Below the pieces are notes generated by a model, which searched no databases, was not told the origin of the DNA, and saw only the letters and a program-made list of their open reading frames with translations. Positions 4,521 through 6,883 of a DNA stretch of 6,883 bases are shown here, in pieces. This stretch comes from a virus. Taxonomy: Duplodnaviria > Heunggongvirae > Uroviricota > Caudoviricetes. The stretch lies in IMG/VR virus record IMGVR_UViG_2690316142_000010, one strand, 5' to 3'. A program made the position numbers and the translations under genes. Each line of letters starts with the position of its first letter. The stretch's first letter is position 1.

Positions 4521-4546
4521 TTATCTAAAACCTCGGTTTACGAGAA
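4521..4546. other. gix/pix-like 26-bp crossover site for a Gin/Pin-type invertase (TTATCTAAAACC-TC-GGTTTACGAGAA)
   Basis: Two imperfect inverted 12-bp half-sites around a 2-bp core; very close to the gix site as I remember it (TTATCCAAAACCTCGGTTTACAGGAA). Sits between the invertase start and the point where the fibre reading frame opens (4529), as in Mu G or e14 P segments. Confidence 0.6.
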
Positions 4547-5305
4547 CTCGGCACAAGCGGGGAGAAAATACCGTTACTCAGTACAGCGAATACCTGGACT
4601 AATCGACAAACATTCAGCGGTGGCCTTTCTGGTGAACTATCCGGCAATGCTTCTACAGCTGCAAAATTAAAAACTGCCAGGAAAATAAGCAATGTGGCTT
4701 TTGATGGTTCCTCCGATATCACATTAAAAGCAAGTCATGTTGGTGCGTTTGCCTTAGGGAAAACAGGAAGCACCGTTGCGAATGATAAAGCAGTTGGATG
4801 GAACTGGAGTAGCGGAGCCTATAACGCAACTATTAGTGGTGCATCAACGTTAATTATTCATTTTTATATGGGAGAAGGAAGTTGTCCTGCAGCTCAGTTT
4901 CGGATTAATTATAAAAATGGCGGTATTTTTTATCGTTCAGCCCGTGATGGTTATGGTTTTGAAGCCGACTGGTCCGAATTTTACACCACCAGAAAACCTT
5001 CAGCAGGAGATGTTGGTGCACTGCCGTTATCTGGTGGTCAACTGAATGGTGCACTGGGTATCGGAACATCCAGTGCTCTTGGCGGTAATTCGATTGTATT
5101 GGGTGATAATGACACGGGCTTTAAACAAAAAGGCGATGGTAATCTGGATGTTTATGCTAATAACGTCCATGTTATGCGCTTTGTCTCCGGAAGCATTCAA
5201 AGTAATAAAACCATAAATATTACGGGACGTGTTAATCCCTCGGATTACGGTAACTTTGATTCCCGCTATGTGAGAGATGTCAGACTTGGCACACGAGTTG
5301 TTTAG
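4529..5305 (+). CDS. Tail fibre protein C-terminal variable cassette (Sv-type), 5'-less silent copy; in-frame TAG at 5303-5305, frame continues to TAA 5453-5455
   Basis: Frame is open from 4529 inside the crossover site; ...FSGGLSGELSGNASTAAKLKTARKISNVAFDGSSDITL is a typical side-tail-fibre motif. Track ORF 4694-5305 starts at GTG. No constant N-terminal region is present upstream (the invertase pseudogene is there instead). Confidence 0.7.
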   Translation, partial: NLGLRELGTSGEKIPLLSTANTWTNRQTFSGGLSGELSGNASTAAKLKTARKISNVAFDGSSDITLKASHVGAFALGKTGSTVANDKAVGWNWSSGAYNATISGASTLIIHFYMGEGSCPAAQFRINYKNGGIFYRSARDGYGFEADWSEFYTTRKPSAGDVGALPLSGGQLNGALGIGTSSALGGNSIVLGDNDTGFKQKGDGNLDVYANNVHVMRFVSGSIQSNKTINITGRVNPSDYGNFDSRYVRDVRLGTRVV

Positions 5306-5457
5306 ACCATGAAGAAAGGCGTGATGTATGAAAAATCAGGCCATGTAATCACGGGGCTTGGTATTATCGGTGAAGTCGATGGTGATGATCCGGCAGTATT
5401 CAGACCAATACAAAAGTTAATTAACGGAACATGGTATAACGTATCGCAGGTATAATC

Positions 5458-5991
5458 ATGCAGCATTTAAAAAACATTGTCGCAGGTAATCCAAAAACCG
5501 TTGAACAATACCAGCTAACAAAGAATTTTGATGTTATCTGGTTATGGTCCGAAGATGGAAAAAATTGGCATGAGGAATTAAAAAACTTTCAGGAGGATAC
5601 AATAAAACTGGCTTACACAGTTGAGGGAATAATTATTGCTATAGACAAGGATGTATCAGCAATTAATCCAGAAGGTTTAAGTGTCGTTGAGTTGCCTGAT
5701 ATTACAGCAAATCGCCGGGCTGATATTTCGGGCAACTGGATGTTCAAAGATGGTGCGGTGATAAAGCGAACTTATACCGAGGAAGAGCAAAGGCAACAAG
5801 CGGAAAATGAAAAGCAGAGCCTGCTGCAGCTCGTCAGGGATAAAACCCAGCTGTGGGACTCTCAGCTACAGCTGGGCATCATTTCCGATGAGAATAAACA
5901 AAAATTAACCGAGTGGATGCTCTATGCGCAGAAGGTTGAATCCACAGACACCTCCAGCCTGCCAGTAACGTTTCCCGAACAACCAGAATGA
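5458..5991 (+). CDS. tfa: Tail fibre assembly protein (Tfa/U-type chaperone)
   Basis: 177-aa ORF directly after the fibre cassette; N-terminus [22 protein letters not shown]...[18 protein letters not shown] is typical of Tfa and ~70% identical to the N-terminal two-thirds of the convergent tfa'. Confidence 0.9.
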
Positions 5992-5994
5992 GAG

Positions 5995-6024
5995 AAGGCC
6001 CGCTATCGGGCCTTAATTTTTATT
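5995..6024. terminator. Bidirectional terminator-like hairpin between convergent tfa genes (AAGGCCCG-CTAT-CGGGCCTT, then AATTTTTATT)
   Basis: 8-bp perfect GC-rich stem with tetraloop 4 nt after the tfa stop; T-tract on the plus side overlaps the tfa' stop codon; CUCUCAUUCU on the minus side. Confidence 0.55.
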
Positions 6025-6547
6025 CAGGCTTTTGTGGCCATTCAGGATTTGCCGTATCCACACGGCTGACCAGAACACTGTAGCGTTCCCATGCTTCCAG
6101 TCGTGTGCGTTCCTCGTCTGTTGCCATATTCAGCCTGACAGCTCGTTCCAGCGGCTGGATGACTGATTCAGCTTCGGAAAGCAATGCGGCCTTTTGTGAT
6201 TCGGCCTGTTGTTGCAGTTCCTGTTCTGTATATTCCCTCTTTACTACTTTACCATCCAGAAACATCCATTTTCCGTTATTGTCTGCGTGACGATTTGCCG
6301 TAATATCAGGAACTTCAACTATGCTTAGCCCTTCAGGATTAATAGTTGAAACGTCTTTACTGACAGCAACGATGATGTTGTTCTCATCGTAAGCAATTTT
6401 TATGGTGTCTGGCTGAAAATTCTTTTGTTCCTCATACCAGTTTTTGCCATCTTCGCAAAAGAGCCATACCACGCCCGCTTTTTTAGTTAGCTGGTATTGT
6501 TCCGGTGTTTTCGGATTCCCGGCCTTAATATTTTTCAGGTGCATCAT
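6020..6547 (-). CDS. tfa: Tail fibre assembly protein (Tfa'/U'-type), inverted partner
   Basis: Track ORF 6020-6583(-); I prefer start ATG 6547 ([13 protein letters not shown]..., GGGGAG 8 nt upstream) by alignment with tfa. C-terminal third differs from tfa, as expected for cassette-specific chaperones. Confidence 0.9.
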
Positions 6548-6548
6548 C

Positions 6549-6883
6549 TTAAACACTCCCCACGTTGTACCATATTCCCCCAATCAATTTCTGAATTGGC
6601 CTTCTGGCAACAGTGTCGACAATATCATCCGCATTGCTGTTAATTGCGGCTGTTAAAACATAACCTGACGCATCGCCAAAGCCGTAGTCGCGCCATACGT
6701 TTTTATATTCAATGCTGCCAAGACGAATATCCCGAACGACATGATTATGCAGCCATGTGCTTAACCAGTTGTTTTCCCACACTGAACCATAAATATCGCC
6801 ACTAGACGCAACTTGCGCACCACTTCCCAGCGCAAATTGAGGTAGCCTGAGTTTAACGGACACTCCTTCCTGAAATAGAATGG
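6549..6883 (-). CDS. Tail fibre protein C-terminal variable cassette (Sv'-type), 5' partial: reading frame is open to the window edge
   Basis: Track ORF 6549-6863(-), but the frame stays open through 6883 (...[13 protein letters not shown]...). C-terminus ...[17 protein letters not shown] parallels the post-TAG tail of the plus-strand cassette (...[17 protein letters not shown]). Stop is 1 nt before the tfa' start. Confidence 0.8.

Follow-up and report, generated by a model that had tools for sequence, protein, structure and literature searches.

A probable decayed remnant of a Mu G-type invertible tail-fibre segment in a 6,883-nucleotide caudoviral sequence

Introduction

The closest described counterparts of the locus analyzed here are the G segment of phage Mu, the B segment of Shigella boydii and a segment of prophage Phi4 in Escherichia coli EC958. 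The S. boydii B segment was reportedly recognized by Tominaga, Ikemizu and Enomoto in 1991 as Mu G-like and joined to a non-Mu constant fibre part. In an intact element of this kind, a constant fibre N-terminal part reads through one 26-bp site into one C-terminal cassette. Two such cassettes lie in opposite orientations, each with its own assembly gene (tfa) behind it, and a Gin-family serine invertase cuts both sites at the central dinucleotide, flips about 2.9-3.1 kb and swaps the fibre tip. A Fis-dependent recombinational enhancer is usually located about 100 bp from one of the sites, within the 5' part of the invertase gene. The hin enhancer, for instance, lies about 100 bp away from hix (PMC3798978).

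In prophage Phi4 of EC958 (E. coli ST131), the site analyzed here has been published as a crossover site, and long reads showed both orientations (Forde et al. 2014, PLoS One 9:e104400; PMC4134206). The Phi4 invertase was described as dead, and inversion in trans was proposed (PMC4134206). Separate alternative-allele contigs were assembled for Phi2 and Phi4 of the same strain, and the flipped form made up about half of the long reads at Phi1 (PMC4134206); the flipped reads and the alternative contigs therefore point to high-frequency switching.

The window is the whole 6,883-nucleotide stretch of DNA that was analyzed (IMG/VR record IMGVR_UViG_2690316142_000010). An earlier reading made from the letters alone (the sequence-only reading) had interpreted positions 4521-6883 as a Gin/Pin-type invertible tail-fibre segment with the architecture of a host-range switch. 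According to the analysis presented here, the region 4230-6883 is very probably what remains, decayed and immobilized, of an invertible tail-fibre segment of the Mu G type, located where a lambdoid prophage remnant ends beside the trp operon, most likely in a Shigella genome; the kind of system is already known, and the window copy would be a frozen relic.

Results

Crossover site and invertase stub

The following features were recognized in the right-hand part of the window:

4162..4237, minus strand: 3' fragment of a tfa (tail fibre assembly) gene, sequence read directly
4230..4466, minus strand: serine invertase pseudogene (pin/gin stub), 68-aa ORF, Pfam Resolvase N-terminal domain only
4521..4546, plus strand: Gin-family crossover site of 26 bp, TTATCTAAAACC-TC-GGTTTACGAGAA, single copy
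4547..5455, plus strand: fibre cassette A, Mu S'-like variable C-terminal part, Pfam gp37_C and Phage_fiber_C
5458..5991, plus strand: tfaA, Mu U'-like, paired with cassette A, Pfam Caudo_TAP (E 4.8e-34)
5995..6021, no strand assigned: terminator-like hairpin, GC-rich with a T-run, between the convergent tfa genes
6020..6547, minus strand: tfaB, Mu U-like, paired with cassette B, Pfam Caudo_TAP (E 7.9e-37)
6549..6837, minus strand: fibre cassette B, last 95 codons and stop, 5' part missing
6838..6883, no strand assigned: terminal 46 bp of IS600 (IS3 family), TGAGGTAGCCTGAGTTTAACGG..., cutting cassette B at 6837/6838

The crossover site, whose letters are TTATCTAAAACCTCGGTTTACGAGAA, has the organization of the family, with two imperfectly palindromic 12-bp half-sites around a 2-bp core (4533-4534). 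It was found once in the window, where the chance expectation was 0 matches at up to 3 mismatches, and no second, degenerate site was found inside the window with up to 9 mismatches tolerated. The left half-site is the one on the invertase side and contains a TAA that closes the cassette frame (frame reading), and the right half is part of cassette A. Mu gixL and Mu gixR each agreed with the site at 23/26 positions, and the centres of the Mu gix sites coincided with the annotated boundaries of the Mu G segment. The pixL and pixR sites of e14 differed from it at 6-7 of 26 positions and have another core. The site had been called gix/pix-like in the sequence-only reading; it is real and unique, and the likeness to gix holds while that to pix is weaker.

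The same reading had placed an invertase beside the segment and overlooked the pseudogene state of both this gene and cassette A; no intact serine invertase gene adjoins the segment. What is left is a stub with a GTG start at 4466 and TGA codons at codon 61 (4284-4286) and codon 65 (4272-4274). When the stub was compared codon by codon with the intact 197-aa invertase of locus L002, similarity faded between codons ~67 and ~80. Identity with Mu Gin was 86% over 79 aa, and the first 180 nt (4287-4466) shared 175/180 positions with Mu gin before the likeness collapsed; judging from this stretch, the Fis-dependent enhancer is probably still contained in it. The stub is fused to the tfa 3' fragment, with the join near 4230, where the upper end of the fragment overlaps the degenerate last codons of the stub. 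This fragment (4162-4237) matched a tfa fragment of L021 at 96%, and in L003 and L016 an annotated partial tail fibre assembly gene adjoins the truncated recombinase. There were three tfa 3' fragments in the window (4162-4237, ~1618-1680 and ~3113-3180).

Fibre cassettes and tfa genes

Two opposed C-terminal cassettes, each with its own tfa gene, were present, and the order that had been proposed from the letters (cassette, tfa, inverted tfa, second cassette) was borne out by the Pfam assignments and the comparisons with Mu. Both cassettes are damaged. Cassette A, which shares 64% aa identity with the C-terminal part of Mu S', lacks its own start codon and is interrupted in frame by a TAG at 5303-5305; this codon is CAG in L003 (read directly), and L012 also differs at base 5303. 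Cassette A is a pseudogene. The remnant of cassette B showed 42-48% aa identity to the C-termini of Mu S and S'.

Both tfa genes are intact ORFs, of 177 aa in tfaA (85% aa identity to Mu U') and 175 aa in tfaB (82% to Mu U), and an identical tfaB protein is present in many complete genomes; their integrity may reflect recent decay or some residual use. The hairpin between them comprises 8 pairs, 6 of them G-C (terminator scan). The promoter scan of 4100-6883 yielded two promoter-like sites (vs. 5.3 expected in shuffled sequences), one of them within tfaA on the minus strand, the other inside the IS600 end, reading outward, both of them wrongly placed for driving any cassette or tfa gene.

IS600 junction and probable loss of the second site

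Contrary to what had been supposed, cassette B ends inside the window. Its homology ends at 6837, and the intact loci L005, L009, L011 and L012 align to the window only as far as that position; 6838-6883 is the IS600 terminal inverted repeat, belonging to an element annotated as IS600 in E. coli genomes. The DNA beyond 6883 was inferred from six complete-genome loci (L004, L006, L007, L008, L010 and L013), which are 100% identical to the window over 4040-6883, IS end included. In these loci, lysis genes (as in L004) or further phage genes come after the IS. The IS600 copy of L004 is 1,264 bp long with imperfect terminal repeats; a 3-bp target duplication was absent from its flanks and the DNA on the far side was unrelated, which speaks for a deletion or rearrangement and against a simple insertion.

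The sequence-only reading had located the second site and the constant N-terminal fibre part beyond 6883. No second site was found in 20 kb of the six loci at up to 6 mismatches (up to 8 in L004 and L006), and neither a second site nor a fibre N-terminal part was present within ~9.6 kb. The window and the six loci thus have one site in place of two inverted ones flanking the segment, and in none of them does a constant part read in frame through a site. The absence of a second inverted site within ~1.5 kb is what that reading had itself named as its refutation, and by this measure the copy is not an operating switch. All six truncated relatives share the orientation of the window.

The cassette B/IS600 junction had no match in the scanned genome collection, and junction 2373/2374 had no exact match in species-representative genomes or metagenome contigs; exact-protein matches of the junction ORFs were not found either. 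No full-length match to 4100-6883 was obtained by Megablast in complete E. coli genomes (a set without Shigella), which pointed to Shigella as the source. The assignment is based on the IS content (ISSso6, IS600 and IS1) and on ipaH-type genes at a paralogous locus. The surroundings of the locus are riddled with IS elements and pseudogenes.

Intact relatives and inversion

Two crossover sites were present in the intact relatives L005, L009, L011, L012, L016 and L017; in L005 the second one lies at the equivalent of window positions 7437-7462. The constant fibre N-terminal part was found in L005 (918 aa), L009 (875 aa up to a TAG), L016 and L017, and in L005 the protein sequence ...EYLGLQE... 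reads in frame across the constant-side site. The distance between site centres was ~2,916 bp in the intact Shigella-type relatives vs. 3,083 bp in the ST131-like strains. In L011 an IS3-family element lies within the constant fibre region, and the sites are not deleted.

Both orientations were observed, with exchange at the core dinucleotide. At the trp-adjacent locus, L005 and L012 are oriented opposite to L009 and L011, and their half-sites are reciprocally swapped at the core. The E. coli strains 4/1-1 and 4/0 (L016 and L017) were compared over 14.5 kb with 0 mismatches, save for an exact inversion of 3,083 bp between the site centres. Among complete E. coli genomes, the stub was located beside cassette A in 374 and beside cassette B in 153, and the same dead invertase allele occurred with both orientations of the segment. 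An origin as a Gin/Pin-type invertible segment, proposed in the sequence-only reading, is thus upheld by relatives in both orientations whose half-sites are exchanged at the core; the two forms, for which evidence from reads had been suggested there as a check, occur among the intact relatives and in the long reads of EC958. The cassette next to the invertase had also been considered the silent one, which fits L005, L012 and L016: in these loci the cassette distal to the invertase is the one joined to the constant part.

Discussion

The history that best accounts for the locus begins with an adjacent invertase gene that was very probably dead before the E. coli and Shigella copies diverged. 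Where both sites are retained, the segment still flips; the invertase must presumably be supplied in trans by another prophage, and an enhancer kept in the 5' stub would probably assist it. In the lineage of the window, a deletion associated with IS600 very probably took away the entire constant part along with the second site and the 5' part of cassette B, and a nonsense codon arose in cassette A. Since one site remains, inversion is impossible, and neither cassette is expressible as a fibre.

Three other explanations were weighed. The switch could still be live in the source genome if IS600 had simply inserted; the remainder of cassette B would then follow just beyond the ~1.26-kb IS, together with the second site and the constant part, and flipping would take place in trans. 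The window does stop inside the IS, intact relatives flip despite the same dead invertase, and the IS3-family element of L011 sits in the constant region with its sites retained; yet the six relatives with the exact junction have unrelated far-side DNA and no target duplication, they show no second site in 20 kb and a single shared orientation, and the IS in cassette B together with the TAG in cassette A leaves no functional fibre tip. A live switch is distinctly unlikely on these grounds. Retention of the remnant for a host function, such as a tfa or cassette-derived protein that blocks receptors in phage defence, was considered very improbable. It would be in keeping with the intact tfaA and tfaB and has a parallel in a report on a cryptic-prophage fibre cassette (the e14 StfE2 chimera, made with PinQ) that blocks T2 adsorption after inversion in trans (PMC12529663); against it, cassette A has no start codon, a frame closed by the TAA of the half-site and an internal TAG, cassette B has no 5' part, neither promoter-like site in 4100-6883 is suited to the cassettes or tfa genes, a single site yields no chimera by inversion, and the surrounding locus is full of IS elements and pseudogenes.

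It would be most surprising of all if the orientation differences had arisen by RecA-dependent recombination between short inverted repeats, the 26-bp sequence being a mere conserved repeat. Gin/Pin-family invertases are established to act on each other's segments, as Tominaga reportedly showed in 1991. The action of PinQ on the e14 segment is in line with such cross-acting invertases (PMC12529663). RecA is favoured by the adjacent invertase being dead in every examined copy, with no active invertase shown in those genomes, but the inverted homology in the relatives extends over just ~26-36 bp, far below what efficient RecA recombination uses. Moreover, the exchange point falls inside the 12 identical central bases of a site with a 23/26 match to Mu gix, the bix half-sites are matched exactly by the recombining sequence, and the long-read data from EC958 indicate high-frequency switching (PMC4134206).

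With a decayed, immobilized remnant as the preferred reading, a further role for its left end was contemplated and judged unlikely: the 5' part of the stub might be kept in hundreds of genomes of E. coli and Shigella as a cis-acting Fis enhancer for flipping in trans, and in genomes like this one the orphan site and enhancer could pair with lone gix-like sites. If so, prophages would divide the labour of inversion among themselves, and pairing of the orphan site with lone remnant sites could drive large chromosomal inversions or deletions. A lone gix-like site does occur in another prophage remnant, for example at 3663-3688 of L020.

The correct label for the region is a remnant of an invertible fibre region of the Mu G / B-segment type, not an active phase-variable host-range switch, and in its annotation the invertase and both fibre C-terminal parts should appear as pseudogenes, alongside one orphan crossover site and the two tfa genes. 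A window edge may mimic a gene running on where the contig in reality ends in an IS repeat. The exact inversion between the sister isolates and the split of 374 to 153 independently support the published flipping in trans after the death of the invertase. Beyond correct annotation, the importance of the finding is small.

Comparison with known systems

In Mu, the order and orientation are shared with the window: an S'-like cassette and U' lie beside the invertase, and U and the other cassette are distal. The tfa lengths are equal (177 and 175 aa), the Gin and tfa proteins are 82-86% identical, and the spacing and sequence between site and invertase start are similar. In contrast to Mu, the context in the window is a lambdoid side-tail-fibre gene, not Mu S; its cassettes are more diverged (42-64%), its invertase is dead and one site is left.

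The sequence-only reading had named both Mu G and e14 P as models. The first, together with S. boydii B, stands as a homologue; the comparison with e14 is the weaker one. The general design is shared with the e14 P segment, namely convergent stf/tfa pairs, 26-bp sites and Pin transcribed away from the segment, and both loci are partly pseudogenized cryptic prophage remnants. In e14, however, the pix core is AA/TT vs. GA/TC here and pinE is intact, and its fibre and tfa proteins are 23-38% identical to those of the window over partial alignments, whereas the Mu tfa proteins reach 57-85% and Mu S' 64%; neither pix-type sites nor e14-type cassettes are found at this locus. As closest model e14 was rejected, direct comparison of sites and proteins favouring Mu G and S. 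boydii B.

The pinB gene of S. boydii reportedly encodes an active invertase, while its counterpart here is a dead stub. With the bixL and bixR sequences as tabulated in PMC3241671, the outer halves of the two sites of this locus are identical to those of bixR and bixL (GGTTTTAGATAA and GGTATTCGATAA), the invertase-side half of 4521-4546 being the one that equals the matching half of bixR; the GA/TC core is also shared, and there is a 2-nt difference in one inner half-site (TTCTCGTAAACC versus TTCCTGTAAACC).

On sequence comparison, the element is the same as the Phi4 segment of EC958 and is a homologue of the S. boydii B segment and pinB. The site at 4521-4546 with its 6-nt left flank is identical to Phi4_3prime on the invertase side (ccgccaTTATCTAAAACCTCGGTTTACGAGAA), the partner site of Phi4 is the same as in the intact relatives of the window (TTATCGAATACCTCGGTTTACAGGAA), and the invertase is severely truncated in both. 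The trp-adjacent locus of the ST131-like strains 4/1-1 and 4/0 lies at nearly the same genome coordinates as Phi4 of EC958. The nonsense codon of cassette A, in contrast, is a feature of the window, and Phi4 retains both sites and the constant fibre part, whereas in the window the constant part and one of the two sites were lost to IS600.

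Organization of the segment

The sequence-only reading had claimed the order site, cassette, tfa, inverted tfa and cassette for a Gin/Pin-type invertible tail-fibre segment at 4521-6883. This order was borne out by the features found in 4100-6883 and by the 26-mer TTATCTAAAACCTCGGTTTACGAGAA, present as a single copy in the window (chance expectation 0 even at 3 mismatches).

Features of the invertible segment
Minus strand, left of the site: short invertase stub ORF, Resolvase domain match confined to the N-terminal part (E 4.6e-15)
4521-4546: 26-bp crossover site TTATCTAAAACCTCGGTTTACGAGAA
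4547-5455, plus strand: cassette A, fibre C-terminal frame (gp37_C, Phage_fiber_C)
5458-5991, plus strand: tfaA, tail fibre assembly gene (Caudo_TAP, E 5e-34)
5995-6014: terminator-like hairpin
6020-6547, minus strand: tfaB, tail fibre assembly gene (Caudo_TAP, E 8e-37)
From 6549 up, minus strand: cassette B, fibre C-terminal frame

Recognition of a Gin-family invertible fibre segment was right, but this copy very probably no longer switches. With a dead invertase, an orphan site, one cassette carrying a nonsense codon and the other truncated by an insertion sequence, the window very probably holds a known element as a frozen relic, the right flank being inferred from relatives. Cassette A has an in-frame TAG at 5303-5305, where the comparison locus L003 reads CAG and L012 differs at the same base too. 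On the left, its frame is closed by a TAA within the invertase-side half-site; the constant-side half-site has an open frame reading ...EYLGLQE....

Probable loss of the second crossover site

In loci with an intact fibre gene, alignment to the window ended at 6837, while six truncated relatives (L004, L006, L007, L008, L010 and L013) aligned through 6883 and were 100% identical from 4040 onward. Positions 6838-6883 are the end of IS600 (element length 1,264 bp), so that cassette B, claimed to run off the window, loses homology at 6837 instead. All six truncated relatives share the window orientation, and beyond IS600 they carry lysis-module or other early phage DNA, with neither a 3-bp target duplication at IS600 nor a fibre N-terminal gene beyond it. 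Scans of 20 kb that tolerated 6 mismatches, and 8 in L004 and L006, gave no second site in any of the six. The constant fibre N-terminal part, placed beyond 6883, is missing from these relatives with identical flanks, and so is an inverted site within ~1.5 kb to the right, an absence that the sequence-only reading had named as refuting it. In the intact locus L005 the second site maps to what would be window 7437-7462; the lost DNA therefore comprises ~600 bp of cassette B, this site and the constant part in full. Between L007 and L004 (~1-9700), the early and lysis block beyond IS600 was inverted between two IS3-family copies, a sign that insertion sequences rearranged the prophage remnant further.

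Inversion in relatives and decay of the invertase

Searching for the exact tfaB protein gave ten loci in complete genomes, all in one place: a lambdoid prophage remnant adjoining the trp operon. A full-length fibre gene was kept in four of them: in L005 and L012 cassette B is joined to the constant part and cassette A adjoins the stub, as in the window, whereas L009 and L011 have the segment in the opposite orientation. In L005 the stub-side site is TTATCTAAAACC-TC-GGTTTACGAGAA and the constant-side site TTATCGAATACC-TC-GGTTTACAGGAA, against TTATCTAAAACC-TC-GGTTTACAGGAA and TTATCGAATACC-TC-GGTTTACGAGAA in L009; the two pairs of loci thus differ by a reciprocal swap of half-sites with the core as exchange point. 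On this evidence, the 26-bp site functions as a crossover site in intact relatives of this locus. Among complete E. coli genomes, the stub/cassette A junction was present in 374 and the stub/cassette B junction in 153. E. coli strains 4/1-1 and 4/0 (L016 and L017; NZ_CP023844.1 and NZ_CP023849.1) showed 0 mismatches over 14.5 kb apart from an exact inversion of the 3,083 bp that separate the site centres. This inversion looks recent and catalysed in trans, the adjacent invertase being a pseudogene. Both strains are Swedish isolates with related names, one faecal, the other from a urinary tract infection.

The stub was compared codon by codon with the intact 197-aa invertase of locus L002. It starts with GTG at 4466 and has TGA at codon 61 (4284-4286), where the intact gene reads TGG, and again at codon 65 (4272-4274); similarity fades past codon ~67-80, at the join to a tfa 3' fragment. 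Shigella-type loci and E. coli alike carry the identical dead allele in either orientation class, and inversion therefore went on after gene death, consistent with catalysis in trans. Over its first 180 nt (4287-4466) the stub is identical to Mu gin at 175/180 positions, and identity drops sharply to ~60% in the next 57 nt. Given that the hin enhancer usually lies ~100 bp away from a hix site (PMC3798978), it is plausible that the stub may still provide a putative cis-acting Fis enhancer. That such an enhancer was kept could explain the abrupt drop in identity, as could gene conversion with another invertase copy as donor.

Window edges and mosaic left part

Starting in the end of IS1 (1-51) and stopping in that of IS600, the window has the appearance of a short-read contig broken at repeats, with edges that are assembly breaks rather than biological boundaries. 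The trp-adjacent locus comprises 1-2373 and 4040-6883, while 2375-4125 matches, at 99.9% identity, another prophage remnant that adjoins ipaH and carries ISSso6 (L021 10986-9236). A 756-bp unit (tfa 3' fragment plus 5' portion of a SAM-dependent methyltransferase gene) is imperfectly duplicated in direct orientation at 1618-2373 and 3113-3868, with 17 mismatches, and the copies are separated by 739 bp from the 5' part of the IS110-family element ISSso6 (2374-3112). The 2373/2374 junction, where the methyltransferase interior meets the IS interior, was absent from species-representative genomes, metagenome contigs and exact-protein look-ups of junction ORFs; either two prophage remnants have truly recombined here or the assembly is chimeric, and the invertible segment itself is unaffected. 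IS content and ipaH-type genes suggest that the host is Shigella, probably S. sonnei.

The same tfa 3' end occurs in three copies (~1618-1680, 3113-3180 and 4162-4237), one of them joined to the stub. This points to repeated rounds of recombination, illegitimate or homologous, between fibre modules at the prophage end. In another genome, a lone constant-side-type site, TTATCGAATACCTCGGTTTACAGGAA (L020 3663-3688), lies in a fibre gene of an ipaH-adjacent prophage remnant and lacks an inverted copy within 20 kb; this further orphan might in theory pair with sites at other places.

Comparison with known invertible segments

Two regions that the sequence-only reading had invoked as models, Mu G and K-12 e14 P, served as references for the site. 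Alignment upheld only the former: both Mu gix sites match the window site at 23/26 positions, whereas the e14 pix sites differ at 6-7. The annotated boundaries of the Mu G segment coincide with the centres of its gix 26-mers. At the protein level, tfaA is 85% identical to Mu U', tfaB 82% to U, cassette A 64% to the C-terminal part of S' and the stub 86% to Gin, while fibre and tfa proteins of e14 are just 23-38% identical to their window counterparts. In S. boydii, the PinB sites are TTCCTGTAAACC-GA-GGTATTCGATAA (bixL) and TTCCTGTAAACC-GA-GGTTTTAGATAA (bixR) (Din-family site table, PMC3241671). The window site reads TTCTCGTAAACC-GA-GGTTTTAGATAA on the opposite strand, so that it shares an identical invertase-side half with bixR. 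By site matches and protein identities, the segment is a homologue of Mu G and S. boydii B rather than of e14 P.

In E. coli EC958, the crossover sites of prophage Phi4 are ccgccaTTATCTAAAACCTCGGTTTACGAGAA and ccgccgTTATCGAATACCTCGGTTTACAGGAA, the alternative orientation was found on separate long-read contigs, and the invertase is severely truncated, so that inversion must occur in trans, possibly by the Phi1 invertase (PMC4134206). Window 4515-4546 is identical to the first of these sites, and the segment is an already known element of the EC958 Phi4 / S. boydii B type.
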